Both the position numbers and the translations under genes were made by a program. From contig DASXZL010000050.1 of the NCBI GenBank assembly GCA_036501935.1, positions 6,620 to 70,619 of the forward strand: 64,000 bases of DNA. Direction: 5' to 3'. Under the pieces are notes generated by a model that was given only the letters and a program-made list of their open reading frames with translations, searched no databases and was not told the DNA's origin. Numbering within the stretch: position 1 is the stretch's first letter; each line of letters opens with the position of its first letter. Below, piece by piece: positions 758-51,610 of the stretch. Origin of the DNA: Polyangiaceae bacterium. GTDB lineage: Bacteria; Myxococcota_A; Polyangia; Polyangiales; Polyangiaceae.

Positions 758-972
758 GAAAAAGCACCCTTCCCGTGCCCCGCCCTCGAGCGCCGGCATG
801 TAGCATGTGGTGCGACGAACGCATCCGACTTCTATTCACCCATCGGCCATCGTTCCTCCGAGGTTGCTCGGGCGGATGTCACCCGATCGGGGGACGGGGG
901 ACGCGGAGCCCTTCGCGGCGCGCGGACGGCTGGTGCAAGGCGAACCCTGGCGTTGTACTCGTCGTTCTCCCC

Positions 973-3558
973 ATGAACCGCGATCCGCTCTCGATCCGCG
1001 CATGGTTCGCCTTTGCCGTGCTGACCGTCTCCGCCTCGGGCTGCCGCGCGCCGGCACCCGCCGCTCGGGCGCCGCTGGCCACGCCCGCGCCTCCCGCGGC
1101 CGTCGTGGCCACGCCGAAGCCACCGGCCTTCGCGGCGAGAGAGGTCTTCCCGCACCACGTGACGGCCCACTGGCTGCAGGACCACGCCCACTTCTTCTAC
1201 CGGAACGAGCAGCCCGACGGCGTGCGTGAGTACCTCCTCGTCGACGCGACGACCGGCGAACGCACTCCCCTCTTCGATCAGACGCGCCTCGCAGCCGCGC
1301 TGAGCCAGGCGAGCGGGAAGGAAGTGAAGCCGGACCACCTGGCCCTCCACCGGCTCGAGCTCGACGAGAAGCGAACGACGATGATCTTCTCCGCGGCCGA
1401 GAAACGCTGGCGCTGCGATCTGCAGACGTACGCCCTCCAGCGGGAGACCGAAAAGCGCGAGGTCGACTCCCTTCGCCTCGCCGCCGAGCCGACCACGCGA
1501 ACCGGTCCGGCGACCGAGCTCACGTTCGTGAACGACTCACGCGGCGCTGTCGCCGTGTACTGGATGGACTTCGAGGGGCACCGCAAGCGCTACGCGACGC
1601 TCCCTCCGGGCAGCCGCCACACGCAACCGACGTACGCCGGCCACGTCTGGGTGCTGACCGACGCGGCGGACCGCGTGCTGATGGCGTTCGAGACGCCGGA
1701 GGACGGCGGCGAGTACGTCGTCGACCAGGAGGACACCCCGCTCGGCAACGTGCCCGTGGCGGTAAAGACTGCGGCGGCGGCGAAAGCCCCGCCGGTCATG
1801 GCCCCTGCCGACGAGCCGCGCGGGATCGCGTCCCCGGATGGCCACCGCCTCGCGTTCGTCAAGGACCACAACGTCTACCTTCGCGACGCACGCACCCGCA
1901 CGGCGGTGGCGCTGAGCCACGATGGCACCGCGGACGACTCGTACGCCGAGGGCGACCTCGCGTGGTCCCCCGATTCGACGCGGATCGTCGCGATGCGCAC
2001 GAAGAAGGGCGACACCCGCAAGGTCTACCTCGTCGAGTCGTCGCCCCACGACCAGCTCCAGCCCAAGCTCGACTCGTACGACTACCTCAAGCCGGGCGAC
2101 CGCATTCCGGTCCAGAAGCCGCATCTCTTCGACGTCACGGCGCGTGCGTCCATCCCGCTGAGCGACTCGCTGTATCCCCAGCCGTGGTCGATCTCGGAGG
2201 TCCGCTGGTCGAGCGACTCGAAGCATTTCAGCTTCCTCTACAACCAGCGCGGCCACCAGATGCTGCGTGTCGTATCGGTCGACGCGCGCAGCGGAGAGGC
2301 GCGCGCCATCGTCGACGAGCAGTCGAAGACGTTCATCGACTACAGCGGCAAGCTCCTCTACCGCCGGCTCGACGACACCCACGAGATCCTCTGGATGTCC
2401 GAGCGCGACGGGTACAACCACCTCTATCTCTACGACGCCGACACGGGCGCCGTGAAGAATCAGATCACGCGCGGCGAGTGGGTGGTGCGCAGCGTCGAGT
2501 CCGTCGACGAGAAGCAGCGCCAGATCTGGTTCTTTGCGGGCGGCGTTCGCCCGGGGCAAGACCCGTACTACCTCCACCTCTGCCGGGTGGGGTTCGACGG
2601 CACGGGGTTCACCGTGCTGACGGAGGGTGACGGGACGCACCTGGTCGAGCTCTCGCCCGATCGGCGCTTCTTCATCGACACCTGGTCGCGCGTCGACCAG
2701 CCTCCCGTGACGGAGCTCCGCCGCGCGAGCGACGGGAAGCTCGTCCGCGAGCTGGAGCGCGCCGACGACCGCCGCCTCCTCGAGACGGGCTGGACGATGC
2801 CCGAGCGGTTCGTCGCCAAGGGCCGCGACGGGCAGACGGACATCTACGGCATCCTGATCCGCCCTTCGAGCTTCGACCCGACGAAGACCTACCCCGTCAT
2901 CGAGGACATCTACGCCGGCCCCACGGGGGCCTTCGTGCCGAAGGCCTTCGGGCTCGAGGAGGACCAGCACGCGCTCGCCGACCGGGGCTTCATCGTCGTG
3001 CAGATCGACGGGATGGGCACGTCCTACCGATCGCGCGCGTTCCACGACGTCGCCTGGAAGAACCTCGCCGACTCGGGTTTTCCCGACCGCATCGCGTGGA
3101 TGAAGGCCGCCGCCGCGAAGCACCCCGAGATGGATCTCACGCGCGTCGGCATCTACGGCGGCTCGGCCGGCGGCCAGAGCGCCCTCCGAGCCCTCCTGTC
3201 TCACGGCGACTTCTACAAGGCTGCCGTCGCCGACTCCGGTTGCCACGACAACCGCATGGACAAGATCTGGTGGAACGAGCAGTGGATGGGCTGGCCGGTC
3301 GACGACAGCTACGTCAAGAGCTCGAACGTGGTGGACGCCCACAATCTGACGGGCAAGCTCCTCCTCATCGAGGGCGAGCTCGATCACAACGTGGACCCGT
3401 CCTCGACGATGCAGGTGGTCGACGCCCTCATCAAGGCCAACAAGGACTTCGAGCTGCTCGTCGTCCCGGGCGGCGGCCACGGCGTCGGGGACAGCCCGTA
3501 CGGGCGACGACGGCGTGCGGACTTCTTCGTCCGGAGCCTCATCGAGAGCAAGCCGTAG
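973..3558 (+). CDS. S9-family serine peptidase (dipeptidyl-peptidase IV-like), probable lipoprotein
   Basis: Track ORF 775..3558 trimmed to ATG 973, giving the signal/lipobox MNRDPLSIRAWFAFAVLTVSASGC. It has a long N-terminal propeller-like region. The C-terminal hydrolase carries the nucleophile elbow IYGGSAGGQ, then Asp (ELDHNVDP) and His (GGGHGV). Confidence 0.85.
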   Translation: MNRDPLSIRAWFAFAVLTVSASGCRAPAPAARAPLATPAPPAAVVATPKPPAFAAREVFPHHVTAHWLQDHAHFFYRNEQPDGVREYLLVDATTGERTPLFDQTRLAAALSQASGKEVKPDHLALHRLELDEKRTTMIFSAAEKRWRCDLQTYALQRETEKREVDSLRLAAEPTTRTGPATELTFVNDSRGAVAVYWMDFEGHRKRYATLPPGSRHTQPTYAGHVWVLTDAADRVLMAFETPEDGGEYVVDQEDTPLGNVPVAVKTAAAAKAPPVMAPADEPRGIASPDGHRLAFVKDHNVYLRDARTRTAVALSHDGTADDSYAEGDLAWSPDSTRIVAMRTKKGDTRKVYLVESSPHDQLQPKLDSYDYLKPGDRIPVQKPHLFDVTARASIPLSDSLYPQPWSISEVRWSSDSKHFSFLYNQRGHQMLRVVSVDARSGEARAIVDEQSKTFIDYSGKLLYRRLDDTHEILWMSERDGYNHLYLYDADTGAVKNQITRGEWVVRSVESVDEKQRQIWFFAGGVRPGQDPYYLHLCRVGFDGTGFTVLTEGDGTHLVELSPDRRFFIDTWSRVDQPPVTELRRASDGKLVRELERADDRRLLETGWTMPERFVAKGRDGQTDIYGILIRPSSFDPTKTYPVIEDIYAGPTGAFVPKAFGLEEDQHALADRGFIVVQIDGMGTSYRSRAFHDVAWKNLADSGFPDRIAWMKAAAAKHPEMDLTRVGIYGGSAGGQSALRALLSHGDFYKAAVADSGCHDNRMDKIWWNEQWMGWPVDDSYVKSSNVVDAHNLTGKLLLIEGELDHNVDPSSTMQVVDALIKANKDFELLVVPGGGHGVGDSPYGRRRRADFFVRSLIESKP

Positions 3559-3585
3559 CCGCGCCCCCTGATATCGTTGGGGCTC

Positions 3586-5403
3586 ATGGTGTCCCTTTCC
3601 GACGGCGAGCGCGTCGCGCTCGGCGAGTACGTCTCCGAGGCGCGGATGCTCGCCCGGGTCATCCGGCGCATCGTCCGCTATCGGCCGACCAGCAAGCACA
3701 ACGTCGCCGAGCTCCTCGAGGCCCGCGCGCTCGAGCATGGCCCGCGGACCGCGATCCTCTTCGGCGACGAGCGCTTCACGTACGACGACTGGAACGCGCG
3801 CGCCAACCGCGTCGCGCACTGGGGCCGCGAGCGGGGTCTTCGCCGGGGGGACGTCGTCGCCCTGCTGATGGAGAATCGCCCGGAGTTCCTCTTCGTGTGG
3901 ACGGGGCTCGCGAAGCTCGGCGTCGTGACCGCGCTCCTGAACACGAACCTCGGCGGGCGCGCGCTCGATCACGCTCTCGCGGCGGCGCGTCCCGTGCGCC
4001 TCGTCGTCGGCGCGGAGTGCCTACCGCAGCTGACGACGCTGTCGAAGGCGCCCCCCACGCACGTCCTGCGCGACCGCTCCGCCTACGAGCTGCCGCGGGG
4101 TGCGCACGATCTCGACGCCGCGCTCGCCGCTCGCCCTGCGAGCAATCCGGACGCGCGGTGGCGCAAAGGCCTCCAGGCGGGGGACGACGTCCTCTACATC
4201 TACACGTCCGGCACCACGGGCTCGCCGAAGGCCGCGCGCCTCAGCCATCTGCGCTTCCTGGCGATCGGCGACGTGCTTTCGGTGTTCGTCGACGGCGCCC
4301 CGGGGGACGTCCTCTACGACGTGCTGCCGCTCTACCACACGGCCGGCGGCGTCATGCTCCCGGCCCTGTCGCTCTTCTCCGCGGCGACGCTCGTCATCCG
4401 CCGCAAGTTCAGCGCAACCGGCTTCTGGGACGACGTTCGCCGGTATCGAGTGACGGGGTTCCAGTACATCGGAGAGCTCTGCCGATATCTGCTCGCGCAG
4501 CCGCCGAAGCCCGAGGACCGCCGGCACGGCCTCCGCTTCGCCGTAGGCAACGGCCTCCGGCCCGACGTGTGGCCGGCGTTTCGAGACCGGTTCGGCATTC
4601 CCCGCATCCACGAGTTCTACGGCGCGACCGAGGGCAACGTCGTGCTCATGAACCTCGACAACCGCGTGGGCGCGGTCGGTCGCGTGCTCATCAAACCGGT
4701 CAGCAACGCGCGCATCATCCGCTACGACGTCGACCGCGACGAGCACCCGCGCGACAAGAAGGGCTTCTGCGTCGAGGCCGCCCGCGGCGAGGTGGGCGAG
4801 ATGATCGGGCGCCTGCCGTTCACGAAGCGAATGGCCCTCGGGAGGTTCGAGGGATACACGTCCGGCGCCGACTCGGAGAAGAAGGTCCTCCACGGCGTCT
4901 TCCGGAAGGGGGACGCCTGGTTTCGCACCGGGGATCTCATGCGCCAGGATGCGCGCGGGTATTTCTATTTCGTCGATCGCATCGGCGATACGTATCGCTG
5001 GAAGGGCGAGAACGTCTCCACGCAAGAAGTGGCGGAGCTTCTCGCACCGTTCCCGGGCGTGCAGATGGCGAACGTCTACGGGGCGCGCGTCGAGGGGGCG
5101 GACGGCCGCGCCGGGATGGTCGCGCTCCTCCTGCACGAGGGGGCGAGCTTCGACGGAAAGAGCTTTTACGCGTTCGTGACCGAGCGTCTCCCGCGTTACG
5201 CCTCTCCGGCGTTCGTTCGGCTTCAACCCGAGGCCGACCTCACGGGGACCTTCAAGCTGCGCAAGGTGGACCTGCAGAAGCAGGGGTTCGATCCGGACCT
5301 CGTGCCCGAGCCGCTCTTCGCGCGGGATGACGCCGCCAGGGCCTACGTCCCCCTCACCCGCGAAATCCACGAGGCCATCCGTGGCGGAAAGTGGGCGCTC
5401 TGA
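3586..5403 (+). CDS. FATP-type / very-long-chain acyl-CoA synthetase (AMP-binding superfamily)
   Basis: Carries the AMP-binding motif YIYTSGTTGSPKAA. The block FYFVDRIGDTYRWKGENVST is typical of fatty-acid-transport-protein-type ligases. ATG 3586 lies in frame within track ORF 3577..5403. Confidence 0.85.
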   Translation: MVSLSDGERVALGEYVSEARMLARVIRRIVRYRPTSKHNVAELLEARALEHGPRTAILFGDERFTYDDWNARANRVAHWGRERGLRRGDVVALLMENRPEFLFVWTGLAKLGVVTALLNTNLGGRALDHALAAARPVRLVVGAECLPQLTTLSKAPPTHVLRDRSAYELPRGAHDLDAALAARPASNPDARWRKGLQAGDDVLYIYTSGTTGSPKAARLSHLRFLAIGDVLSVFVDGAPGDVLYDVLPLYHTAGGVMLPALSLFSAATLVIRRKFSATGFWDDVRRYRVTGFQYIGELCRYLLAQPPKPEDRRHGLRFAVGNGLRPDVWPAFRDRFGIPRIHEFYGATEGNVVLMNLDNRVGAVGRVLIKPVSNARIIRYDVDRDEHPRDKKGFCVEAARGEVGEMIGRLPFTKRMALGRFEGYTSGADSEKKVLHGVFRKGDAWFRTGDLMRQDARGYFYFVDRIGDTYRWKGENVSTQEVAELLAPFPGVQMANVYGARVEGADGRAGMVALLLHEGASFDGKSFYAFVTERLPRYASPAFVRLQPEADLTGTFKLRKVDLQKQGFDPDLVPEPLFARDDAARAYVPLTREIHEAIRGGKWAL

Positions 5404-5607
5404 GGCTCGTGCTCAGCCGCTCCAACGGACGAGACCGGACCCCTCGTGATCGCATGTCACAGAATGGCATTTTGCCTCTGCGTGACAATCCAGACGTTCG
5501 TTCCTTCGCCCCGGCGACCGTAGCTCCGGCGGATATCCGAGTGATTGTCAGGCGAGCCAGGGTGCTCGTGCGGCGACGGTTCACAATGTGCAGCGGACGA
5601 GTCGCCC

Positions 5608-6921
5608 ATGAAGAAACCGGCTTCCGTTCGCCCCGCCGATGGCAAGCTCGGCGTCCTGCTCCCGGGAATGGGTGCGGTCGCGACGACCATGATGGCGGGG
5701 GTCATGCTGGCCCGTCGTGGCAAGGCCTTGCCCATCGGCTCGCTCACGCAGATGGGGACGGTGCGTCTCGGGATGCGTACCGAGAACCGGGCACCGAGGG
5801 TCGCCGACCTCGTTCCTCTCGCCAGCCTCGATCGGATCGTGTTCGGCGGCTGGGACATTTTTCCCGAGAATGCCTTCGAGGCGGCCGAGCATGCCAAGGT
5901 GCTCGAGCCTCGGCACCTGTCCGAGGTGCGGGCCGAGCTCGAGGCCATCGTGCCCATGAAGGGGGTCTTCTATCCGGGTTACGTGAAGAGGTTGAGCGGG
6001 ACGCACACGAAGAGCGCCGGCTCGAAGGCCGACATGGTCGAGCAAGTGCGCGACGACATCCGCACCTTCAAGCGTGACCGCGGATGCGACCGCCTCGTCT
6101 CGGTCTGGTGCGGGAGCACGGAGTCGTACCTGCGGCCCACGGCCGTCCACACCGACACGACGTCGTTCGAGAAGGGCCTCCTCCGCGACGATCCCGCCAT
6201 CTCGAACGCGCAGATCTACGCCTGGGCATCGCTCAAGGAGCGCGTCCCGTTCGCGAACGGCGCGCCGAACCTGTGCGTCGACTTCCCCGCGGCCTGGGAG
6301 CTCGCGCGCGAGCAGCGCGTGCCCCTCGCCGGCAAAGACTTCAAGACCGGCCAGACGCTGATGAAGACCGTGCTCGCCCCCGGCTTCAAGGCACGCCTGC
6401 TCGGCCTGCGCGGCTGGTACAGCACGAACATCCTCGGCAATCGCGACGGAGAGGTCCTCGACGACCCCGAGTGCTTCAAGAGCAAGGAGGTCTCGAAGCT
6501 CGGCGTCCTCGACCAGCTGCTCCAGCCGAAGCTCTATCCCGAGCTCTACGGCGAGCTCGTTCACAAGGTCAGCATCGATTACTACCCCCCGCGCGGCGAC
6601 TCGAAGGAGGGCTGGGACAACATCGATCTCTTCGGGTGGCTCGGATACCCGATGCAGATGAAGGTCAACTTCCTCTGCCGCGACTCGATCCTCGCCGCGC
6701 CGGTCGTCCTCGACCTCGCGCTCTTGCTCGACCTAGCCCATCGCGCCGGCTTCCAAGGAACCCAGGAGTGGCTCAGCTTTTACTTCAAGAGCCCGATGAC
6801 GGCGCCCGGGCTCTACCCCGAGCACGACCTCTTCATTCAACTGATGAAGCTCAAGAACACCCTTCGCTGGATGGTCGGCGAGGAGGTCATCTCCCACCTG
6901 GGTACCGAGTACTATGATTGA
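5608..6921 (+). CDS. ino1: myo-inositol-1-phosphate synthase
   Basis: N-terminal Rossmann segment GVLLPGMGAVATT. Conserved MIPS blocks are NGAPNL, GKDFKTGQTLMKTVLAP and WYSTNILGNRDG, and the C-terminal core block is LCRDSILAAPVVLDL. Trimmed to ATG 5608 (MKKPASV). Confidence 0.85.
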   Translation: MKKPASVRPADGKLGVLLPGMGAVATTMMAGVMLARRGKALPIGSLTQMGTVRLGMRTENRAPRVADLVPLASLDRIVFGGWDIFPENAFEAAEHAKVLEPRHLSEVRAELEAIVPMKGVFYPGYVKRLSGTHTKSAGSKADMVEQVRDDIRTFKRDRGCDRLVSVWCGSTESYLRPTAVHTDTTSFEKGLLRDDPAISNAQIYAWASLKERVPFANGAPNLCVDFPAAWELAREQRVPLAGKDFKTGQTLMKTVLAPGFKARLLGLRGWYSTNILGNRDGEVLDDPECFKSKEVSKLGVLDQLLQPKLYPELYGELVHKVSIDYYPPRGDSKEGWDNIDLFGWLGYPMQMKVNFLCRDSILAAPVVLDLALLLDLAHRAGFQGTQEWLSFYFKSPMTAPGLYPEHDLFIQLMKLKNTLRWMVGEEVISHLGTEYYD

Positions 6922-7987
6922 ACGTCGCGCGCTGCGAGGGGCGGTCGTCGGCTACGGTTTCATCAGCGAGCGTGGCCACGTGCCCGCCTACGCGCGGCCC
7001 GGGGAGACGCCCTTCGAGATCGTGGCCGTGGCGGACGTTTGCGCGGCGCGGCGGGCGAAGGCCCGGGCGGCGCTCCCGAATGCGCGCATCTACGAGACCC
7101 ACGGCGAGCTCCTGATGGCCGAGCGCGGCCGCGTCGACTTCGTCGACGTGTCGACCCCCCCATGCGACCACGCCGCCATCGCCCAGGCCGCGCTGAAGTG
7201 CGGCCTTCACGTGCTCTGCGAGAAGCCCCTCGCTACGAGCGCGAACGAGGCCCGCGCCATGGTGGCGATGGCGCGCGAGCGGCGGCGGGTGCTCTTTCCC
7301 TGCCACAACTACAAGCACGCGCCGGTCGTCAAGGCGGTGCGCCACGTGCTCGACGCGGGCCTCATCGGGCGCCCCAGCGTCGTGACGCTGCAGACGTTCC
7401 GGAACACGCACGCGCGGGGCGTCGACGAGTGGCGGCGCGACTGGCGACGAGAGCGGCGCTTCTCCGGCGGCGGCATCGCGATGGATCACGGGAGCCACAC
7501 CTTCTATCTGGCCTTCGACTGGCTCCGTGAATACCCGACGGACATCACGGCGAAGATGTCGACCCTCGGCGCCTACGACACCGAGGACAACTTCACCTGC
7601 ACGATGAGCTTCCCCAACGGCACGGCCACGGCCACGCTGTCGTGGACCGCCGGGGTGCGGAAGGTCATCTACACGATCCACGGCGACCGGGGCGCGGTGC
7701 GCGTCGAGGACGACAACGTGCAGGTCGCCGTCAAGACCGACGGCCACGAAGGGGCCGAGCCCGTGACCTGGGAGATGAAGGAGCAGCGGGTCGCGTCCGA
7801 GTGGATGGACGCCAGTCACGTCGGCTGGTTCCGCTCGCTCTTCGACGAGTTCGGACAGGCCATCGCGGCCGACGACTACGTCAGCCGCGAGACCGAATCG
7901 GGCGTCCGCGCCATCGAGCTCATCACGGCCGCCTACGCCTCGGCGCACGACCAGTCGCGTGAGCACGTCCTCCTGCGGGGAGCCTGA
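6914..7987 (+). CDS. Gfo/Idh/MocA-family NAD(P)-dependent oxidoreductase (inositol-dehydrogenase-like fold)
   Basis: Dinucleotide-binding segment VVGYGFISERGH near the N-terminus and the family EKP motif (VLCEKPLA). The start overlaps the ino1 stop by 8 nt (ATGATTGA). Confidence 0.8.
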   Translation: MIERRALRGAVVGYGFISERGHVPAYARPGETPFEIVAVADVCAARRAKARAALPNARIYETHGELLMAERGRVDFVDVSTPPCDHAAIAQAALKCGLHVLCEKPLATSANEARAMVAMARERRRVLFPCHNYKHAPVVKAVRHVLDAGLIGRPSVVTLQTFRNTHARGVDEWRRDWRRERRFSGGGIAMDHGSHTFYLAFDWLREYPTDITAKMSTLGAYDTEDNFTCTMSFPNGTATATLSWTAGVRKVIYTIHGDRGAVRVEDDNVQVAVKTDGHEGAEPVTWEMKEQRVASEWMDASHVGWFRSLFDEFGQAIAADDYVSRETESGVRAIELITAAYASAHDQSREHVLLRGA

Positions 7988-7990
7988 CGC

Positions 7991-8788
7991 GTGGTCGACC
8001 TCGCGTGCTCCCTGGCGCTCTTTGCGTGCGTTCTCGCGATCGCGGCGGCTTACGGCGTGCACGTCGCCCGAACGGGATACGCGTGGCACGCGCGCGTCGA
8101 GCGCGCGGGGCGGTCGCCCCTGCTCGGCATGGGTGTCCAGCAGATGGGGTACTGGGCGATGCGGCCCGCGGCCCGCGCGTGCATCGCGCTCGGATGGAGC
8201 GCCAACGCCATCTCGTGGGCTTCGCTCGTTCTGGCGGCGGCGGCCGGCACCGCGCTGGCCTTCGGGCGCTTCGGCGTCGGAGCGGCCCTCAGCGCGGTGT
8301 CCTCCGTCTGCGACGCGCTCGACGGCATGGTGGCGCGCGAGACGGGCACGGCGAGCAACGCGGGCGAGGTGCTCGACGCGACCGTGGATCGCTACGCGGA
8401 GCTCTTCTTCATCGGCGGCGTGGCCTATGCGGCGAGGCTCGACCCCGTCGCGCTGCTGCTCGCCTTCGCCGCGGCCGCCGGCGCGGTCATGGTGAGCTAC
8501 GCGACGGCGAAGGCGGAGGCGCTGCGCGTCGAGGCTCCGCGCGGGGTGATGCGGAGGCAAGAGCGCGCCGTATACCTCGTGCTTGGCGCCGCGCTCGTGC
8601 CCATCGCCGCGGCGGCCGCGGTTCGCTGGGCGCTGCCTACGTGGGTCGGGTGGGCGCCGATGCTCGCGGCCTTCGGGCTCGTCGGCGTCCTCGGCAACGC
8701 GTCGGCCGTGTACAGGTTGCGCGTCGTGGCCGATCGGGTGGTGCTTCAGCCCAGGCACCGGGTCGCAAGGAGCTCGCCGGCGCAATGA
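7991..8788 (+). CDS. CDP-alcohol phosphatidyltransferase family membrane protein (candidate phosphatidylinositol-phosphate synthase)
   Basis: Exact family signature D-x2-D-G-x2-A-R-x8-G-x3-D-x3-D in CDALDGMVARETGTASNAGEVLDATVDRY. The protein is polytopic and hydrophobic. GTG start lies 3 nt after the upstream stop. Confidence 0.8.
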   Translation: MVDLACSLALFACVLAIAAAYGVHVARTGYAWHARVERAGRSPLLGMGVQQMGYWAMRPAARACIALGWSANAISWASLVLAAAAGTALAFGRFGVGAALSAVSSVCDALDGMVARETGTASNAGEVLDATVDRYAELFFIGGVAYAARLDPVALLLAFAAAAGAVMVSYATAKAEALRVEAPRGVMRRQERAVYLVLGAALVPIAAAAAVRWALPTWVGWAPMLAAFGLVGVLGNASAVYRLRVVADRVVLQPRHRVARSSPAQ

Positions 8789-10161
8789 CAGCGACCTTCC
8801 GGACTCCGCACGACCAGAAGATCCACCTGAAGACGGCCGTCCCCGGCCCGAAGAGCCGCGCGCTCCGCGCCCGCGAGGACGCCCACATCGCCCCCGGACT
8901 CCAGGGCTACGCGGTCATGGCGGGCATCGTCGTCGACCACGCCGAGGGCAGCGCCATCACCGACGCCGACGGCAACGTGCTACTCGACTTCGTCGGCGGG
9001 ATCGGCGTCAACGCGCTCGGCCACGCGCACCCGAAGATCGTCGACGCCATCCAGCGTCAGGTCGCGCGCGCACACGTGGGCTCCTTCACCAGCGAGGCTC
9101 GCGTCGAGCTCGTCGAGAGGCTCGCCGCTCACGCCCCCGCCCCGCAGCTTCACCGTGCGCAGCTCTACTCCGGCGGCGCCGAGGCGGTGGAGAGCGCCCT
9201 CCGCCTCGCGAAGAGCCACACCCGGAAGAACGAGCTCGTGTCGTTCTGGGGGGGATTTCACGGCAAGACCATGGGCGCCCTCTCGCTCATGGGCTCGACG
9301 TACAAGGAGGGCCTCGGGCCGATGGTGCCGGGCAGCCACCTCATCCCGTACGCCAACTGCTACCGCTGCCCCATCGGCTCGACGTATCCGTCGTGCGGCC
9401 TCGGTTGCGTGGAGCTGGGGCGAAAGCAGCTGCGGATGGAGAGCGCGGGATCCATCGCGGCGTTCATCATCGAGCCCATGCAAGGCACCGCGGGCAACAT
9501 CGTACCGCCGGACGACTTTCTGCCGGCCGTGCACGCGCTGGCCAGGGAGCACGACGCGCTACTCATCGCCGACGAGATGATCACCGGCTTCGGTCGGACG
9601 GGGACGTGGTGGGGGATCCAGCACTCGGGCGTCGTCCCGGACATCGTCACGATCGGCAAGGCCTTCGGCGGAGGCTTTCCGCTCTCGGGCCTGCTCACGA
9701 CCGACGACATCGGAAAGGCCAAGCCGTGGAGCGCGCAGAGCGGCTCTTCGTCGAGCTATGGCGGCAACCCGCTCGGCGCGGCGGCCGGCGCGGCGGCGCT
9801 GCAGGTCATCGAGGACGAGAACCTCGTCGACAACGCGCGGGGGGTGGGACGAGCGCTTCTCGACGAGCTACGGCCCTTCGTCGACGATTACCCCTTCGTC
9901 GGCGAGGTCCACGGTCGTGGCCTCTTCCTCGGGATCGAGCTGGTCCGCGACAAGAAGACCAAGGAGCCCTTGTCGCGCACCGTCACCCGCCGAATCTTCG
10001 ACGCATGCGTGGCGCGCGGTCTGCTGACGATGGCCTACTCGCCGAGCTTCCGCCTGCAGCCGGCGCTGACGATCGACCGCGCGACGGCGCAGGCGGGGGT
10101 GGCCGTGCTGCGCGAGGTGTTCGACCTCGTGAAACGCGAGCGGAGCTGGGAGGCGCCCTGA
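8785..10161 (+). CDS. Class III (PLP) aminotransferase
   Basis: In-frame ATG 8785 within track ORF 8005..10161, overlapping the upstream stop as ATGA. Motifs: LDFVGGIGVNALGHAHP, ADEMITGFGRTG, and the PLP-lysine context DIVTIGKAFGGGFP. Confidence 0.85.
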   Translation: MTATFRTPHDQKIHLKTAVPGPKSRALRAREDAHIAPGLQGYAVMAGIVVDHAEGSAITDADGNVLLDFVGGIGVNALGHAHPKIVDAIQRQVARAHVGSFTSEARVELVERLAAHAPAPQLHRAQLYSGGAEAVESALRLAKSHTRKNELVSFWGGFHGKTMGALSLMGSTYKEGLGPMVPGSHLIPYANCYRCPIGSTYPSCGLGCVELGRKQLRMESAGSIAAFIIEPMQGTAGNIVPPDDFLPAVHALAREHDALLIADEMITGFGRTGTWWGIQHSGVVPDIVTIGKAFGGGFPLSGLLTTDDIGKAKPWSAQSGSSSSYGGNPLGAAAGAAALQVIEDENLVDNARGVGRALLDELRPFVDDYPFVGEVHGRGLFLGIELVRDKKTKEPLSRTVTRRIFDACVARGLLTMAYSPSFRLQPALTIDRATAQAGVAVLREVFDLVKRERSWEAP

Positions 10162-11109
10162 GTGGCCATCGCCGTCGACGAGCTCCGCGTACGCCACTCC
10201 GCCTGGATGCTCCTCGCGCCCGTCCCGTTCCTGCTGCACGGCGCCTGGTCCGCCTGGCGCGGCGTCTTTCACTGGGAAAACGCCGCCATCTGCCTCTTCT
10301 TCGTGATCACGGCGCTCGGGGGAGCGAGGACCCGGAGGCTGCTCGTCGGCGCGTACCCCCTCGGTCTCGTAGGCCTGATGTACACGTCGATGAAGGTCGT
10401 CGAGAACGTGGGCGTCTCCCCCGCGACCGTGCACCTGTGCGATCTCCGCGCCGCCGAGCTCGCGCTGTTCGGCATCACCGTCGGAGGCCAAAGGATGACG
10501 CTCCACGACTGGTGGCAAGTGCATCCGGTGCCTGCCCTCGACTTCCTCTGCGCCATTCCGTACGGCACCTTCCTCTTCGCGATCACCGGGTGCGCCATCT
10601 GGCTGTACTTCCGCGACTACACGCGGATGGTGCGCTTCGGCTGGTGTTACCTCGCCCTCAACGTCGCGGGCTTTCTGACCTACCACCTCTATCCCGCGGC
10701 CCCTCCCTGGTACTTTCACGCGCACGGCTGCGTCGTCGACCTGACCGTGCACGCCACCGAAGGCCCGAACCTCGCGCGGGTCGACGCCTGGCTCGGCGTC
10801 CCCTACTTCGCCGGCATGTACGGGAGGGCGAGCGACGTCTTCGGCGCGATGCCGAGCCTCCACGCGGCGTACGCTCTGCTCATCGTGCTCCTCGCGTGGC
10901 CCACGTACGGCGTCGGCTGGCGCATCGTCAGCGTCGCCTTCCTCGTCCTCATGTGCTTCGCCGCGGTCTATCTGGACCACCACTGGGTGCTCGACCTCGT
11001 GGCGGGCCTCCTCTACTGCGCGGTCGTGGTCGGCGTCTCCGTGGTCGCGGTGCGCCTCTCCGGGTGGTCCGCCTCGTCGAGGCGGCGCCCGGCGACGTGC
11101 TCGACGTGA
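10162..11109 (+). CDS. PAP2-superfamily polytopic membrane protein resembling AUR1-type inositol-phosphorylceramide / phosphoinositol transferases
   Basis: GTG start directly abuts the upstream TGA. Multiple TM segments. PAP2 C2-like FGAMPSLH and C3-like DHHWVLD (H-x3-D) motifs sit in the spacing seen in AUR1-type enzymes. The call rests on motifs only. Confidence 0.55.
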   Translation: MAIAVDELRVRHSAWMLLAPVPFLLHGAWSAWRGVFHWENAAICLFFVITALGGARTRRLLVGAYPLGLVGLMYTSMKVVENVGVSPATVHLCDLRAAELALFGITVGGQRMTLHDWWQVHPVPALDFLCAIPYGTFLFAITGCAIWLYFRDYTRMVRFGWCYLALNVAGFLTYHLYPAAPPWYFHAHGCVVDLTVHATEGPNLARVDAWLGVPYFAGMYGRASDVFGAMPSLHAAYALLIVLLAWPTYGVGWRIVSVAFLVLMCFAAVYLDHHWVLDLVAGLLYCAVVVGVSVVAVRLSGWSASSRRRPATCST

Positions 11110-11819
11110 GCGGGCGGGGCGCGGTCTTCGTCGACGCGATAGGCCTTCGCCATGGCCTCGGGCAGGGGGCGGATCGCGTCGCCCACGTAGCAGCGCTCCT
11201 CCACGAGGTCCTTGCGCGAACGGGCCGCGTGGCCTCCGAGCTGGTGGCTCCAGACGTCGCTGTAGAACGTCGGTCGAGCGGGATCGAGCGCGAGGACCTC
11301 CTTGCGCGAGAGCTCGTGCGGGTGCTCGCGCCCGTCGTCCACGAGCGCATGATCGATGGTCAACGAGCCGTCGGCCCCGAGGCGGTACACGATCGACACG
11401 CCCTCGACGTCCCCCGCGCCGTAGAGAGCACGCTGAAACCCGGGCGCGACCCAGAGCGCACGCGTGTAAACCATGTCGACCGCGAGCGCGGGGAGGACGC
11501 TCCACGTGAGCCAGTTGTTCCCCCAGGGCCGCTCCTCCGAATAGAACGCGAAGTACCCCACGGCGATGTGTCCGTCCGTCGTGGCCACGGCCCGGTAGTA
11601 GAGGACGTCCGAGCGCTTGCCCGCGCTGCGCACCGACGAACCGATGCACACGGGCTGGCTTTCGATCGCAGCCTGCTCCACGGTCACCTCGCCGCGCGGA
11701 CCGGGGGCCGTGGGGAGCGCGCCCGCGAACGGGAAACAGGCCATCGTGAAGACCGCCGGCGCTACGATCAACCACGTCTGGCGGGGACCGGTTGACGCGC
11801 CGTCGAGCCGAAGTCCCAT
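11013..11819 (-). CDS. Hypothetical membrane-anchored/secreted protein
   Basis: Track ORF with a plausible N-terminal hydrophobic anchor (WLIVAPAVFTMACFPFAGA). The sequence is globular-looking and not low-complexity. Its 3' end overlaps the convergent gene by 97 nt. Confidence 0.5.
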   Translation of the reverse strand: MGLRLDGASTGPRQTWLIVAPAVFTMACFPFAGALPTAPGPRGEVTVEQAAIESQPVCIGSSVRSAGKRSDVLYYRAVATTDGHIAVGYFAFYSEERPWGNNWLTWSVLPALAVDMVYTRALWVAPGFQRALYGAGDVEGVSIVYRLGADGSLTIDHALVDDGREHPHELSRKEVLALDPARPTFYSDVWSHQLGGHAARSRKDLVEERCYVGDAIRPLPEAMAKAYRVDEDRAPPAHVEHVAGRRLDEADHPERRTATTETPTTTAQ

Positions 11820-11948
11820 CGAGGGTCCGGACGATACACAGACGCCAAGCCTGGTTGCGAGCTGAGCCGCACATTTCGTGAGTAGAGTGTGGGCAGTACT
11901 GCGCGTGGGTGGGAATGAGGCGCAACGACTTCGGGGCCCGACCTCGGC

Positions 11949-13253
11949 TCAGAAGGTCAGGCCGTCCTCGACGTAAATGCCGAACGGAAAGCCGGGGTTC
12001 TCTGCGGTGGCGTCGGGCGAATAGGCGAAGTCGAAGCGGAACAGCGCGGCCTGGCCCCAGAGTAAGTACGCGCCCACCCCGGTGCCCCACTTGAGCCCCA
12101 GCCCGCTGCCATCGAGCGGCGAGTGGAAGGTGTAGTCGCTCCACACGCGCCCCGTGTCGAAGAAGACGTCGTGGCCGAGCCGGATGGTCTGACCGAACAC
12201 GTGAAAGCTGGAGTAGAGGGTGCGAAGCTCCACGTTCCCGACGGCCTTGATCTGACCGAGGTAACGGCCGAACGGGACGCCGCGGATCGAGGCCGAGCCG
12301 CCGATCATGTAGTCGGGGTTGAAGACGCCCCCCGTGAAGAGCTCGAAGAAAGGGACGTGGCCGAACTTGAAGTCCGCGGCTCCCTGGACGGCCAGGACGA
12401 AGGGGCCCCCGAGGGGTGTGTACTTGGCCACCGTGATCTCGCCCTCGCCGTAGGTGAGGCCCGCGCCGAGAGGAAAGGCCTGCGAGAACCGCGCACCGAC
12501 CTGATCGAGCCAGCCCGAGCGGGTGAAGATTTCCGAGTCGCGCGAGTCGTAGAGGAGCCCTGCCCCTTCGGAGACGATGGCGAGCGGCTGCGTGCCCAGC
12601 ACATAGGGGCTCCCGTTGGGGGCGCGCTCCGTCGTGTCTTCGGCGAGCCGGCTGCCGGCGTACGGGGTCGGGTTCACGTAGCGGGCGATCGTCGACGAGA
12701 GGAAATAGAGGGGGCCGGAGAGCTGGTAACGCGTCAGCTGACGAACGCCGCCCTCCTCGTGCGTGTACTCGAAGTACCGGTTGTCCGACCCTGCGGGCCG
12801 CGCCGCGCTCGAGGCGTTGCCGAGGCCGAAGTATCCCTGGTTTACCGTCCGGCGAAACTCGGCGAACGGATTCACGCGGAGTCTGCCGCCATCGAGCCCC
12901 GGTACGTCGATGTCCCAGAGATACGATTGCTGCGCCAGCTCGACGCCGCCGGGAATGCTCTTCACGCTCGCCGATGCCACGAGGTCCATGTTCCAACGGT
13001 AAGGGACGACCCCGCCGCCGAAGAGCGACAGGGTCGCCGCGCCGCCGAACTCGAAGCCGACGTCGCTGTTGCCTCCGAGGATCGGGAAGGCAGCGGGCTC
13101 GTAGCGGCGCGTCAGGTAGTCGCACTCCTCTTCCGCCTTGACCAAGCTCGCGGGGTTCGTGACGGGCGCCGGATCCGCGGCGAACGCGGGGCGCGGCGCG
13201 AGGCTCGACACGCCAGCGACGAGCCCCAGTACGAGTCGAGCTCGCCGGACCAC
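11949..13253 (-). CDS. Omp85/surface-antigen(D15)-like outer-membrane beta-barrel protein without obvious POTRA region
   Basis: This is the C-terminal part of track ORF 11949..17444. I place the start at GTG 13253, giving the signal peptide VRRARLVLGLVAGVSSLAPRPAFA-ADP. The protein shows an alternating beta-strand pattern and a C-terminal aromatic (…GIYVEDGLTF). Confidence 0.6.
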   Translation of the reverse strand: MVRRARLVLGLVAGVSSLAPRPAFAADPAPVTNPASLVKAEEECDYLTRRYEPAAFPILGGNSDVGFEFGGAATLSLFGGGVVPYRWNMDLVASASVKSIPGGVELAQQSYLWDIDVPGLDGGRLRVNPFAEFRRTVNQGYFGLGNASSAARPAGSDNRYFEYTHEEGGVRQLTRYQLSGPLYFLSSTIARYVNPTPYAGSRLAEDTTERAPNGSPYVLGTQPLAIVSEGAGLLYDSRDSEIFTRSGWLDQVGARFSQAFPLGAGLTYGEGEITVAKYTPLGGPFVLAVQGAADFKFGHVPFFELFTGGVFNPDYMIGGSASIRGVPFGRYLGQIKAVGNVELRTLYSSFHVFGQTIRLGHDVFFDTGRVWSDYTFHSPLDGSGLGLKWGTGVGAYLLWGQAALFRFDFAYSPDATAENPGFPFGIYVEDGLTF

Positions 13254-13333
13254 GGGCCTAAGGCGTGCAACGCGAGTGCCTCGGCGCGACGCGCCGGACG
13301 AGGACGCCTCTGCCGCGAGAGCGGCGGAGACCG

Positions 13334-15193
13334 CTACTTTCGCTTCGTGTGGCGCAGCGGTGCGTTGCCGCCGCGATCCGCGCGTGGGGGAGCCTCGACG
13401 GTGCGTCGCCGTGGAAATGCCCGGGGAGGGCGCTCCTCGACGCGGGCCGGACGGTCGGCGGGCGCGGGCGGCACGCTGTAGGGAGGGGCAGGCCGACGGG
13501 GCCCCTCCGGCGGGGGACTCGGCGGTCCAGGCCGCGGCGCCGCGTCGGCCCGCGTGATGAGCACGCGCGGATCGCGCGGATCGGGCTTGGCTGCCTCGCG
13601 CTCGAACGCCTCGGCCACGCCGCGGGCCACATCGACGAACGAGCAACCGGCCTCGACGCGGATGGCCCCGACGTCGCCGCCACGGATGTTCCCGCGCCGG
13701 CACGCCACGGCGAGGAGACGTCGCGCGTCGGCCCCGTTGCGCCCGCCCCAGGTCACACGGAACGTGACCCAGTCGGCCGGTCCGGTCGGCTTCCGTGGAG
13801 CACGCCCCTCCGCAGCCCGCGGTGGCGTCCGCGCCGGAGGATGGTCGTCCCGCGGCGGCGGGATGGCGCGCACTTCGCGCGCCTTGGTCGGACCGTGCAG
13901 GCCCGCCTTGACGACCAGCCGCGCCAGCGCCGTCACGAGCGCGCCGCTCTTCACGATGCGCTCGGCGATCGACAGCGCGTGCGGATCGATGGTCTCGCCG
14001 TCCCCCTCGCGGGCGAGCCACGCGACGAGCTTCTCCTCGCGCGCGCGCTGGATGGCCTCGGGCCGAGGGATGGGCTCCACGCGGTGCGCGATCTTGGCGC
14101 GCGCGAACCCTCGCGTGATGGCCTGGTAGTGGTTCGGCGACACGAAGAGAACGCTCGTCCCCTGCTTGCCCGCGCGCCCCGTGCGGCCGCTCCTGTGCGT
14201 GTACGTCTCCACGTCCGTCGGCGGCTCGATCTGGATGACGCGCGCGATGTCGCGGACGTCGATGCCTCGCGCCGCCACGTCGGTCGCGATGAGGGCCTGG
14301 ACGCCCCCCTGCCGGAACGCCGCGAGCGCGCGGTCCCTCTCCGGCTGCTCCATTTCCCCCGACAGCGTGCGGACGACGAAGCCGGCCTCCGCGAGCTCGC
14401 CCGCGATGCGAGCGACGTCGGCCCGCGTCCGCGCGAAGACGAGCGACTTCGCCTCCTCGTCCGAGAGAAGGAGGTTCACGAGCGCGTCGACCCGCTTGCC
14501 CGGCTCGACCAGGTGCACGATGTGCTCGATGTCCGCGTGGGCTTCTCCCAGGCGCGTGCCCTGCACGTGCACCGGCTCTTTCTGGAAGCGGTCGGCCAGC
14601 GCCACGACGTCGCGAGAGAACGTCGCCGAGACCAGGTGCGAACGACGCTCGGCCGGGAGCATGGCCAGGATGGCCTCCAGGTCCTCGCGGAAGCCGAGGT
14701 CGAGCATCGAGTCGGCCTCGTCGAGCACCACGGCCGCCAGGTTGGACGGATCGAGCCTCTGGCGCTCCAGCGCGTCGCGGAGCCTTCCCGGGGTGGCCAC
14801 GACGACCGCGGGGTTCGACGAGAGCGCTCGCTTCTGGTCGAGATAGCCGGAGCCGCCGGTGACGGCCGCGACGCGGACCCGCAGCGGCGCGTAGAGCCAC
14901 GTCAGCTCGTCGGCGACCTGCTTGGCCAGCTCGCGTGTGGGCGCGAGGACGAGGACACGCGGACGCGCGACGCCACCGTACTGGGCGGTCAGGTCGTCGA
15001 GCAGGTCGCGCACGGCGAAGCCGATGGCGAGGGTCTTGCCCGAGCCGGTCTGCGAGGTAATGCGCAGATCGCGCCCCTCGAGCGCCTCGTCGAGCACCGC
15101 CTCCTGCACGGGAGTGAGCGTGTCGTACCCCTTCGTGGCGAGCGCCGACGCGAGCGCCGGGCCGACGAGGTGCGTGAGGTCGGCGGCGGTCAT
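13334..15193 (-). CDS. DEAD-box ATP-dependent RNA helicase with DbpA-like C-terminal RNA-binding domain and Arg/Pro-rich tail
   Basis: Q-motif TPVQ, motif I SQTGSGKT, motif II VLDEADSMLD, motif III SAT, and motif VI HRSGRTGRAG. C-terminal segment WVTFRVTWGGRNGADARRLLA. Confidence 0.9.
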   Translation of the reverse strand: MTAADLTHLVGPALASALATKGYDTLTPVQEAVLDEALEGRDLRITSQTGSGKTLAIGFAVRDLLDDLTAQYGGVARPRVLVLAPTRELAKQVADELTWLYAPLRVRVAAVTGGSGYLDQKRALSSNPAVVVATPGRLRDALERQRLDPSNLAAVVLDEADSMLDLGFREDLEAILAMLPAERRSHLVSATFSRDVVALADRFQKEPVHVQGTRLGEAHADIEHIVHLVEPGKRVDALVNLLLSDEEAKSLVFARTRADVARIAGELAEAGFVVRTLSGEMEQPERDRALAAFRQGGVQALIATDVAARGIDVRDIARVIQIEPPTDVETYTHRSGRTGRAGKQGTSVLFVSPNHYQAITRGFARAKIAHRVEPIPRPEAIQRAREEKLVAWLAREGDGETIDPHALSIAERIVKSGALVTALARLVVKAGLHGPTKAREVRAIPPPRDDHPPARTPPRAAEGRAPRKPTGPADWVTFRVTWGGRNGADARRLLAVACRRGNIRGGDVGAIRVEAGCSFVDVARGVAEAFEREAAKPDPRDPRVLITRADAAPRPGPPSPPPEGPRRPAPPYSVPPAPADRPARVEERPPRAFPRRRTVEAPPRADRGGNAPLRHTKRK

Positions 15194-15275
15194 GGGGGAC
15201 GCGATGTAGCACGCGGTCCCGGCGGAGGCTCCTGATCGAGCGCTCGATGGAACGTCGGTTGCTCAGGGGAGATGC

Positions 15276-17696: not shown

Positions 17697-17705
17697 GCCC
17701 GCGGC

Positions 17706-51607: not shown

Positions 51608-51610
51608 GCC

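Follow-up and report, generated by a model that had tools for sequence, protein, structure and literature searches.

A dehydrogenase–aminotransferase pair embedded in a myxobacterial inositol-lipid operon and its possible part in an aminated head group

Results

We analysed a 64-kb stretch of DNA from a Polyangiaceae bacterium (the window), in which five genes on the + strand are packed with overlaps or gaps of no more than 3 nt. The reading frames and junctions lie where the initial annotation had placed them, and all five of its family assignments are borne out by Pfam profile matches above the curated cut-offs. The first gene (5608–6921, +) encodes a 437-aa myo-inositol-phosphate synthase (MIPS; NAD_binding_5, PF07994, 321 bits; Inos-1-P_synth, PF01658, 114 bits). 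Its stop overlaps by 8 nt, read from the sequence as TACTATGATTGAACG, with the start of an NAD-dependent Gfo/Idh/MocA oxidoreductase (GFO; 6914–7987, +; 357 aa; GFO_IDH_MocA and C-terminal domains, 78, 72 and 72 bits), a proposed inositol-phosphate dehydrogenase. The TGA stop of GFO, the triplet CGC and a GTG start then form a 3-nt gap before a PIP-synthase-like CDP-alcohol phosphatidyltransferase (CDPOH; 7991–8788, +; 265 aa; CDP-OH_P_transf, PF01066, 40 bits), whose stop shares an ATGA with the start of a class III aminotransferase (AT3; 8785–10161, +; 458 aa; Aminotran_3, PF00202, 331 bits), a PLP enzyme and the proposed inosose-phosphate aminotransferase. The TGA of AT3 abuts, with no gap, the GTG of a gene for an AUR1-like PAP2_3 membrane enzyme (PAP2; 10162–11109, +; 315 aa; PF14378, 82 bits), proposed to transfer a phospho-head group to ceramide. 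Purine runs resembling Shine-Dalgarno sequences (GGGGAG, AAGGAG and GGGAGG) precede the last three starts. This operon is not a chance juxtaposition, because the four- or five-gene arrangement is found again in dozens of independent genomes; 'obligatorily co-translated', the term originally applied to GFO and AT3, is nevertheless more than overlapping codons alone can establish.

The gene upstream (3577–5403) belongs to the long-chain acyl-CoA synthetases by its match to NF006134, at 732 bits (cut-off 625). It does end 204 nt before the MIPS start, as had been pointed out, but it is not conserved with the cluster. Searching the entire 64 kb yielded no gene for a PgpA-type PIP phosphatase, GtrA or MMPL protein. 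The lack of a PIP phosphatase noted for the operon thus extends to the whole window, but it is a peculiarity of the window: many relatives carry PgpA directly after PAP2, within a fuller cluster of the form MIPS-GFO-CDPOH-GtrA-AT3-PAP2-PgpA-MMPL.

When the PAP2 profile was compared with the whole PDB, yeast AUR1 was the sole match (E 2e-21). The alignment with this catalytic subunit of the fungal IPC synthase covers the catalytic core only, about 180 residues, and includes the motifs PAAPPWY, PSLH (FGAxPSLH) and HHxxD (YLxHHxxxD), with H234, H273, H274 and D278 invariant. The best NCBIfam match is the Bacteroides phosphoinositol dihydroceramide synthase (NF052609; 144 bits, below its cut-off of 480). 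The protein is therefore AUR1-like, as suggested from the outset, and falls outside the group of ordinary lipid phosphatases. Comparison of clusters with and without GFO and AT3 revealed no PAP2 residues that correlate with the pair, which seems odd if this enzyme must handle a different head group. The same comparison found no MIPS residues peculiar to the clusters that bear the pair. The MIPS of the window is 66–83% identical to those beside the same cluster in relatives, and in a tree the MIPS proteins of pair-bearing and plain clusters are intermixed.

No NCBIfam equivalog cut-off is reached by GFO or AT3, and both have only generic neighbours in the PDB and in structural comparisons, so their substrates can be inferred from context only. 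GFO has no signal peptide, and its structural neighbours (from a predicted model) include GenD2, WlbA and scyllo-inositol dehydrogenase. Residues E103-K104-P105 and D191/H195 are invariant, as are R163, H166, W173, W177, R178 and R179 within a conserved basic loop (163–185; THAxGVxEWRxDWRRExR) that is of low confidence in the AF2 model. In AT3, K292, D263 and R423 align with K268, D239 and R398 of E. coli GabT, whereas GabT R141, E211 and Q242 correspond to K161, T235 and I266. Among 46 cluster-linked AT3 sequences K161 and T235 are invariant, and position 266 is Ile in 44 and Leu in 2. By alignment, then, AT3 keeps the catalytic Lys and Asp and the carboxylate-binding Arg but is unlike GABA aminotransferase at the substrate positions; the retained Arg suggests an alpha-amino acid as the amino donor. 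The protein also scores well on other class III models (PbfA, 283 bits; Leu/Met racemase, 247 bits), and isoleucine 2-epimerase is among its PDB matches.

To follow the pair elsewhere we used a genome set of 80 loci (L004–L083), to which we added the window and the three copies of it on Logan contigs (L001–L003). GFO and AT3 are both present in 45 loci and both absent in 22, and in no locus of this set whose contig spans the region does either occur singly. The proposed co-conservation with inositol-lipid genes therefore holds as a strict pairing. Seen from the GFO side, orthologues of at least 55% identity with full flanks (n = 17) are accompanied by AT3 and by CDPOH in 15 cases each but by PAP2 in only 7, and in metagenome loci too GFO and AT3 follow CDPOH more closely than PAP2. 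The suggestion that the product is a modified inositol phospholipid or sphingolipid can accordingly be narrowed: the pair tracks CDPOH and not PAP2, so any modified lipid would foremost be a glycerophospholipid, with the sphingolipid form an add-on.

The pair remains linked to CDPOH, GtrA, PgpA and MMPL in different phyla and under widely differing gene orders. GFO adjoins MIPS in both gene orders (L085–L087 versus L095, L099, L144 and L152), although many loci bearing the pair have no dedicated MIPS nearby; host contigs range from 45 to 73% GC, and the cluster is present in a Chloroflexota MAG (Candidatus Limnocylindrales, HUR71430–71434). Among the carriers, Minicystis rosea DSM 24000 (L083) is in culture. 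Variant clusters L097 and L144 have LPG_synthase_TM (flippase-type) proteins in place of GtrA. There are exceptions to the linkage: L099 has GFO-MIPS-CDPOH, with a transferase of the Glu type described below, and no AT3 within 10 kb, L124 lacks the transferase, and at L131, L140 and L143 GFO homologues of at most 54% identity stand alone with no lipid genes near.

In the PDB, CDPOH matches PIP synthases best, among them M. tuberculosis PgsA1. Its motif, D108x2D111G112x2A115R116...G125E126x2D129x3D133, is the DX2DGX2AR...GX3DX3D of mycobacterial PgsA1/PIPS (Grave et al. 2019, PMC6506517), and the PgsA1 phosphate-site residues R94, S132, R152 and R155 have conserved equivalents in R134, S169, R189 and R192. 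The two enzymes differ in that PgsA1 A86 is replaced by Glu126, the Arg-Phe before it by Asn-Ala (Asp-Ala in most relatives), K135 by Thr and R137 by Lys, and the match to NF045883, at 75 bits, stays below that model's cut-off of 170.

Glu126 (codon 8366–8368, +), which follows the Gly of GX3DX3D, is kept in GFO-linked transferases. It occurs at all 46 genome loci with GFO and AT3 and in all 37 metagenome transferases beside GFO, but at only 2 of the 11 loci without the pair (L022 and L062, where a Glu-type transferase has no GFO or AT3 nearby); other transferases have Ala, Gln or Lys at this position. The residue is not a clade marker: across 150 family representatives, enzymes with Glu and enzymes without it are intermingled, and identity between the two types is about 50%, while among the Glu enzymes themselves it goes down to 30%. 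In PgsA1, A90 and R94 line the ino-P pocket (PMC6506517); Glu126 falls a single helical turn ahead of A90 and faces the same side of the helix as these two residues. Helix periodicity thus makes Glu126 a candidate specificity determinant, and the acidic residues gained in the pocket of the transferase would suit an acceptor that carries a cationic group. As a sequence signature, it is a new and independent line pointing to the same reading as the initial annotation.

Among the closest known systems is the experimentally dissected BT_1522–BT_1526 of Bacteroides thetaiotaomicron (PAP2/PIPS/GtrA/PgpA/MIPS; Heaver et al. 2022, PMC9246714). The window has the MIPS, PIP synthase and AUR1-like PAP2 (PI-dihydroceramide synthase) families in common with it and lacks the GtrA-like protein and PgpA-like PIP phosphatase, which the window's relatives possess; the fuller cluster of those relatives amounts to the Bacteroides set plus GFO, AT3 and an MMPL lipid exporter. 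As described in PMC9246714, BT_1522–1526 includes neither a Gfo/Idh/MocA protein nor a class III aminotransferase, and neither term occurs in that paper. The transferase of the window further differs in having Glu126, and Bacteroides-based NCBIfam matches all fall below their equivalog cut-offs.

Discussion

On balance, and with moderate confidence, we favour the view that the product of the operon is a membrane lipid derived from inositol and bearing an aminated head group, a possibility raised in the initial annotation and supported at the sequence level by co-conservation, the type of PAP2 enzyme and the Glu signature. From more than 100 related loci and the change in the synthase active site, the GFO/AT3 pair probably yields an amino-inositol lipid head group that is undescribed; none was found in the literature searched. 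MIPS would convert glucose-6-phosphate to D-myo-inositol-3-phosphate, and cytoplasmic GFO would use NAD+ to oxidise one ring hydroxyl of this product, yielding an inosose phosphate. AT3 would then turn the ketone into an amine, with an alpha-amino acid as donor, and CDPOH would couple the resulting inosamine phosphate to CDP-diacylglycerol, such that oxidation and transamination of Ins-3-P precede attachment to lipid. A PgpA-type phosphatase, a cluster gene in many relatives and presumably encoded elsewhere in this genome, would strip the extra phosphate to leave phosphatidyl-inosamine, from which PAP2 could shift phospho-inosamine onto ceramide, giving ceramide phospho-inosamine. In relatives, the GtrA-like protein and the MMPL transporter may flip and export the lipid. 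The absence of residues specific to pair-bearing clusters in MIPS and PAP2 fits a modification made after MIPS and before the transferase. That the window is without the phosphatase needed to complete this pathway counts against it.

Inosamines are made by a dehydrogenase and an aminotransferase in StrI/StsC and IolG/MosB, and GFO-family/aminotransferase pairs act on other sugars in NtdC/NtdA (glucose-6-phosphate), WlbA/WlbC and GenD2/GenS2. GFO and AT3 would follow the same logic of ketone formation and PLP-dependent amination, at only 20–27% identity to these pairs. To our knowledge, characterised inosose aminotransferases, like most of the aminotransferase partners in the pairs just named, are mostly of the DegT/StsC type and not, as AT3 is, of class III, which weighs against an aminated product, and none of these aminocyclitol and amino-sugar pathways is known to feed a membrane-lipid synthase.

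The same product could arise in another order, with PIP or PI made first and the lipid-attached head group then modified by GFO and AT3 at the cytoplasmic membrane face. AT3 follows CDPOH and GtrA in the gene order of most relatives, PAP2 and MIPS are alike in clusters with and without the pair, and GFO has, in its basic loop, a potential binding site for a phosphodiester at the membrane surface. We nevertheless think this order unlikely: a Glu that tracks the pair so perfectly would be pointless in a transferase still using unmodified inositol phosphate, translational coupling joins GFO to MIPS in the window and the two genes adjoin in both orders elsewhere, and the characterised Gfo/Idh/MocA enzymes known to us act on soluble substrates. 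There is a similarly small chance that the lipids are ordinary PI or IPC, and that GFO and AT3 are clustered with their genes through a common precursor, diverting inositol phosphate to catabolism, salvage or a soluble aminocyclitol (a solute, signal or secondary-metabolite precursor). Family matches of both proteins are generic only, GFO homologues do occur without lipid genes (L131, L140 and L143), and PMC9246714 cites a report of ceramide phosphoinositol, a lipid whose head group is unmodified, from the myxobacterium M. xanthus. Against such a diversion, the two genes of the pair lie in between membrane-lipid genes, not just beside them, and stay linked to them even where MIPS is not adjacent, neither the window nor the examined flanks showed further inositol catabolic genes (iolB, C, D, E, J) or genes for aminocyclitol tailoring, and the correlated Glu change sits in the lipid synthase itself.

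Two further schemes would alter the chemistry. NtdC, a Gfo/Idh/MocA enzyme, oxidises glucose-6-phosphate ahead of transamination in the kanosamine route, and GFO and AT3 might likewise act before MIPS, which would cyclise an amino-sugar phosphate to an amino-inositol phosphate. GFO does lie upstream of MIPS at L095, L099, L144 and L152, but the scheme seems very unlikely given a module-cluster MIPS with no distinguishing residues and no separate place in the tree; moreover, the many module loci without a dedicated MIPS nearby would rely on a housekeeping enzyme, whose expected substrate is glucose-6-phosphate. More improbable still is that AT3 is a racemase, phospho-lyase or ammonia-lyase and the head group is not aminated but scyllo- or chiro-inositol or a deoxy or keto form. 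In line with this idea, AT3 scores well when matched to class III models and structures of racemases, epimerases and lyases, and it lacks the GabT Glu211 switch residue. However, known class III racemases and lyases use amino compounds, so that an amine would still be involved, inositol epimerisation takes a second reductase and not a PLP enzyme, and the transferase pocket, with the acidic residues it has gained, fits a cationic acceptor.

If the favoured reading, an aminated head group, is correct, a zwitterionic lipid would replace anionic PI or IPC. MprF, which makes lysyl-phosphatidylglycerol, offers a parallel in which an anionic lipid becomes zwitterionic or cationic by gaining an amine, but its enzymes are unrelated and here the amine would enter the head-group ring before lipid assembly.

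The operon and its immediate surroundings

The five genes lie on the forward strand of a window of about 70% G+C and encode, in order, MIPS (myo-inositol-phosphate synthase, 5608-6921), a Gfo/Idh/MocA oxidoreductase (GFO, 6914-7987), a CDP-alcohol phosphatidyltransferase (CDPOH, 7991-8788), a class III aminotransferase (AT3, 8785-10161) and a PAP2_3 membrane enzyme (PAP2, 10162-11109), each scoring above the curated cut-off of the expected Pfam family. The initial annotation had placed the five reading frames at these coordinates and had described close coupling throughout, all of which holds: MIPS and GFO overlap by 8 nt (ATGATTGA), a 3-nt gap separates GFO from CDPOH, CDPOH and AT3 share an ATGA overlap, and the TGA of AT3 abuts the GTG of PAP2. 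Scanning 5200-12200 for promoters and terminators gave no signal exceeding shuffled expectation. A long-chain acyl-CoA synthetase (3577-5403, + strand; NF006134 above cut-off), which ends 204 nt before MIPS and had been associated with the operon, adjoins the cluster in none of 80 related genome loci and was therefore rejected as a part of the system; it is a bystander. The remaining window neighbours of the cluster are unrelated.

MIPS matches the Pfam families NAD_binding_5 (321 bits, cut-off 25) and Inos-1-P_synth (114 bits, cut-off 27) and misses the actinobacterial equivalog TIGR03450 (26 against a cut-off of 638), and is therefore of the long Bacteroides/eukaryote-like type. PAP2 (PF14378, 82 bits) has the catalytic PSLH histidine and the HHxxxD motif, and residues H234, H273, H274 and D278 are invariant and align with yeast AUR1. 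Among NCBIfam models PAP2 matches that of the Bacteroides phosphoinositol-dihydroceramide synthase best (NF052609, 144 bits vs an equivalog cut-off of 480), and a profile of 20 homologues searched against the entire PDB matched yeast AUR1 only, with the PAAPPWY, PSLH and HHxxD motifs aligned. With this sole structural match and these motifs, PAP2 is by sequence an AUR1-type enzyme, as first proposed, and not an ordinary lipid phosphatase; it is predicted to transfer phosphoinositol from PI to ceramide. In one homologue of 446 aa (P0037) an AUR1-like PAP2_3 domain and a PgpA domain are naturally fused, which connects the head-group transferase with the PIP phosphatase. In two MAGs (loci L007 with L025, and L010 with L023) the full cluster is accompanied by a second, solitary AUR1-like PAP2 paralogue elsewhere, and at locus L015 a solitary PAP2 is followed by PgpA.

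GFO has the N-terminal Rossmann and C-terminal domains of its family (PF01408, PF22725 and PF02894, all above cut-offs), and the EKP lysine and catalytic Asp/His are kept (E103-K104-P105, D191 and H195, all invariant). AT3 (PF00202, 331 bits) retains the Schiff-base lysine, the PLP aspartate and the carboxylate-binding arginine as K292, D263 and R423 (GabT K268, D239 and R398), invariant in 46 sequences. At the GABA-specific positions of E. coli GabT it departs from that enzyme: R141 is replaced by Lys and E211 by Thr, both invariant in the 46 sequences, and Q242 by Ile (44 sequences) or Leu (2). Neither protein reaches an NCBIfam equivalog threshold; GFO falls below the IolG (myo-inositol 2-dehydrogenase) models TIGR04380 (63.6 bits vs 355) and NF052679 (41 vs 540), and AT3 below the 4-aminobutyrate aminotransferase model TIGR00700 (283 against 507). 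PDB sequence searches with both returned generic family matches only, and Foldseek with the AF2 model of GFO (pLDDT 86) gave generic family neighbours including GenD2, WlbA and scyllo-inositol dehydrogenase. Because all of these matches are generic, naming the substrates of GFO and AT3 by homology was rejected. Within the AF2 model of GFO, confidence drops internally at one place only, a loop of residues 163-185 (THAxGVxEWRxDWRRExR; pLDDT ~50). This loop hardly varies among 13-27 orthologues and resembles a flexible, basic lid suited to an anionic substrate.

The oxidoreductase and aminotransferase form a paired module in Myxococcota

We scanned the PAP2 alignment against one genome per GTDB species, obtaining 436 loci, and analysed the best 80, all of which are from Myxococcota. 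Most are Polyangiaceae MAGs, and the cultured Minicystis rosea DSM 24000, whose cluster lies at CP016211 11.674-11.695 Mb, is also among them. Among these best 80 of 436, tblastn with the window proteins located a GFO-CDPOH-AT3-PAP2 block in 45 loci and simpler inositol-lipid clusters that lack both GFO and AT3 in 22, and no locus had GFO or AT3 singly where the contig covers the region. The suggestion that the two enzymes are co-conserved with the inositol-lipid genes is thereby borne out. In neighbour-joining trees of PAP2, MIPS and CDPOH, clusters bearing the GFO/AT3 module intermix with plain ones and form no clade, which implies repeated gain or loss of the module.

Several genes missing from the window occur in the relatives, namely a GtrA-like gene between CDPOH and AT3, PgpA directly downstream of PAP2 and, after PgpA, an MMPL transporter of ~850 aa. 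Other genes of the window were rejected as a source of the missing steps, since its 64 kb contain no GtrA, PgpA or MMPL, and no serine palmitoyltransferase or other sphingolipid synthesis gene was found there. The observation that the operon has no PIP phosphatase is thus correct for the window but peculiar to it. Where relatives have PgpA and MMPL, the window has a convergent reading frame (11013-11819, - strand; 268 aa, high GC3, no Pfam match) that overlaps the 3' end of PAP2 by 97 nt; two Logan contig copies of the window (L002 and L003) have it as a called gene too, and a homologue was seen in only ~2 other loci. The flanks conserved in a second cluster subtype (HlyD, MFS, histidine kinase and ABC-F) were judged unrelated.

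In Bacteroides, BT_1522-1526 encode MIPS, PIP synthase, GtrA, a PgpA-like PIP phosphatase and a PAP2 synthase, with roles assigned from knockouts (PMC9246714). Many relatives have all five of these genes, whereas the window has MIPS, a PIP synthase-like CDPOH and PAP2, with GtrA and PgpA nowhere. The myxobacterial cluster is therefore that pathway with GFO, AT3 and an exporter added. The Bacteroides paper mentions neither a GFO nor an AT3 enzyme (PMC9246714), and our literature searches found no amino-inositol lipid, no description of a GFO/AT3 module and nothing relevant on the genetics of myxobacterial inositol sphingolipids; a term search within a survey of conserved myxobacterial gene clusters brought up neither the module nor such a lipid. 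What is new is the dehydrogenase/aminotransferase module; the inositol-lipid cluster to which it is added is known.

A glutamate in the lipid synthase accompanies the module

CDPOH carries the class I signature DX2DGX2AR...GX3DX3D (D108ALD111G112MVA115R116 ... G125EVLD129ATVD133). Its best NCBIfam matches are an archaetidylinositol-phosphate synthase and two bacterial PIP synthase models, all below their equivalog cut-offs (NF040950, 106 vs 180; NF052561, 80 vs 350; NF045883, 75 vs 170), and in the PDB it matches PIP synthases best, M. tuberculosis PgsA1 among them. All cluster-linked CDPOH sequences were aligned with PgsA1 as reference. The catalytic signature is conserved in every sequence aligned, and of the PgsA1 residues that bind the inositol phosphate through its phosphate, the equivalents of R94, S132, R152 and R155 are kept in 57/57 (S132 being Thr in one), R195 lying outside the alignment.

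A single position tells the cluster types apart; it follows the Gly of GX3DX3D and is Ala86 in PgsA1 and Glu126 (8366-8368) in the window. Glu occupies it in 46/46 module-bearing genome loci and in 37/37 metagenome loci adjoining GFO, and Ala, Gln or Lys in 9/11 loci without GFO and AT3. In the Glu type the canonical preceding Arg-Phe is usually Asp-Ala. The same comparison of clusters with and without the module found no correlating residue in PAP2 or MIPS. Glu occurs in 77 of the best 150 family representatives, where Glu and non-Glu sequences interleave at all similarity ranks; non-Glu enzymes are ~50% identical to the Glu type, and Glu types diverge from one another down to 30%. Judged from these alignments, Glu is not a simple clade marker.

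In PgsA1, A90, which lies on the same helix one turn past the A86 position, lines the inositol pocket, the A90Y substitution significantly reduces activity, and R94, two turns on, binds phosphate (PMC6506517). We infer that the acceptor of the Glu-type enzyme may still be a cyclitol phosphate but a positively charged one. With such an acceptor, oxidation and transamination would take place between the MIPS and transferase steps, on soluble inositol phosphate.

The module follows the glycerolipid synthase in metagenomes

Scanning the GFO alignment against metagenomes gave 80 loci, and neighbours were tallied for 17 orthologues of at least 55% identity that are flanked on each side by at least 5 kb. 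AT3 and CDPOH each neighbour GFO in 15/17, followed by MMPL (10/17), GtrA (9/17), PAP2 (7/17), PgpA (6/17) and MIPS (4/17), the last adjoining GFO in both gene orders. The order GFO-CDPOH-GtrA-AT3-PgpA, without PAP2, recurs; GFO and AT3 therefore form a set with the glycerolipid synthase, and the AUR1-like step is optional. This corrects the initial interpretation, in that the module goes with the glycerolipid synthase rather than with the sphingolipid step (CDPOH 15/17 vs PAP2 7/17). Cluster-bearing contigs span 45-73% G+C; L132 matches proteins encoded consecutively in a Candidatus Limnocylindrales (Chloroflexota) MAG, and L126 matches a MAG labelled Proteobacteria. Some more distant GFO homologues are solitary.

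There is one clear exception to the pairing. Locus L099 (GC 0.46; 9977-18220) has GFO-MIPS-CDPOH of the Glu type, followed by MMPL, which is on the opposite strand, and by MlaE/MlaD lipid-transport genes, with no class III aminotransferase within 10 kb. At L097, L103, L105 and L121 (e.g. L097 3705-15960), GFO and a convergent AT3-CDPOH occupy opposite strands. Around this variant are LPG_synthase_TM (MprF flippase-type), a GT4 glycosyltransferase, a radical SAM/SPASM enzyme, a 939-aa sulfatase-domain membrane protein and a phosphoglycerate-mutase-like metalloenzyme, which hint at further head-group decoration. Locus L144 (Bdellovibrionales GWA2_49_15; 8795-18012) has GFO-MIPS, a 304-aa protein without Pfam match, a non-Glu CDPOH, LPG_synthase_TM and, 1.2 kb beyond it, a class III aminotransferase; with its non-Glu transferase and with AT3 3 kb away it is only partly usable as a cross-phylum example, and may represent a related but distinct inositol pathway.

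A proposed route to an amino-inositol lipid

In the pathway that we propose, MIPS would convert glucose-6-phosphate to inositol-3-phosphate, GFO with NAD+ would oxidise this to an inosose phosphate, and AT3 would aminate the latter to an inosamine phosphate. The Glu-type CDPOH would join inosamine phosphate to CDP-DAG, and the resulting phosphatidyl-inosamine phosphate would be dephosphorylated to phosphatidyl-inosamine by PgpA, which is absent from this window. The AUR1-like PAP2 could then make ceramide phospho-inosamine by passing the head group on to ceramide, and in relatives the GtrA-like and MMPL proteins may move the lipid outward. The MIPS, CDPOH and PAP2 steps are modelled on family membership and on Bacteroides and mycobacterial precedents, and those of GFO and AT3 on context, the Glu signature and established dehydrogenase/aminotransferase chemistry. 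We rate the whole pathway as slightly the better side of an even bet. The original reading of an oxidised or aminated inositol-lipid head group is to this extent supported computationally, with its sphingolipid, phosphatase and acyl-CoA synthetase elements corrected.

The same product might instead arise by modification on the lipid, which we consider unlikely: a charged acceptor would put both reactions ahead of the transferase. It would equally put them behind MIPS, and action of GFO and AT3 before MIPS seems to us quite improbable. Ordinary PI or IPC could be the product, and GFO and AT3 could feed a side pathway; against this, the pair goes with a single residue of the lipid synthase, and we think it about as unlikely as modification on the lipid. 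Least probable, and very much so, is a non-transaminase role for AT3.

To our knowledge, the genetics of bacterial inositol lipids was not resolved until 2022, and then in Bacteroides alone. The core of that pathway is present in Myxococcota with an added, strictly paired module that co-varies with one lipid-synthase residue. Tentatively, and at a little under even odds, the amino-inositol route may define an unrecognised class of membrane lipid, comprising phosphatidyl-inosamine and, in Myxococcota, ceramide phospho-inosamine, whose aminocyclitol head group would be made from inositol phosphate before assembly by a dedicated Glu-variant PIP synthase. Exported by MMPL transporters, they would occur widely among soil and freshwater bacteria from several phyla (Myxococcota, Chloroflexota/Limnocylindrales and others), where they would take the place of anionic inositol lipids as zwitterionic counterparts. 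If so, this would be new head-group chemistry in an aminocyclitol phospholipid or sphingolipid, the Glu after the Gly of GX3DX3D would mark producers in genomes and metagenomes, and unassigned nitrogen-containing polar lipids in environmental lipidomes might be accounted for. It would also bear on how the outer membrane is built and its charge tuned in certain Polyangiaceae-type myxobacteria that are reported to lack LPS. The module-bearing cluster combines wide occurrence with a testable sequence marker and a cultured carrier, and because Minicystis rosea DSM 24000 has the cluster the prediction is directly testable.

Other features of the window

Upstream, at 775-3558 (+), a 927-aa S9/DPP-IV-type peptidase has a VHL beta domain match (PF01847, 34 bits vs cut-off 21) at residues 247-298, unexpected in a bacterial protease. 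A TPR-rich protein of 1972 aa is encoded at 20448-26366 (+), and two DUF2330 paralogues lie side by side at 48360-51607 (+), followed by a TPR/cytochrome-c554-like protein (51608-53818) and a 1512-aa Lhr-type helicase (53819-58357). At 27010-29814 (-), a 934-aa adenylate/guanylate cyclase combines DUF5939 with a polyketide-cyclase/START-like lipid-binding domain.
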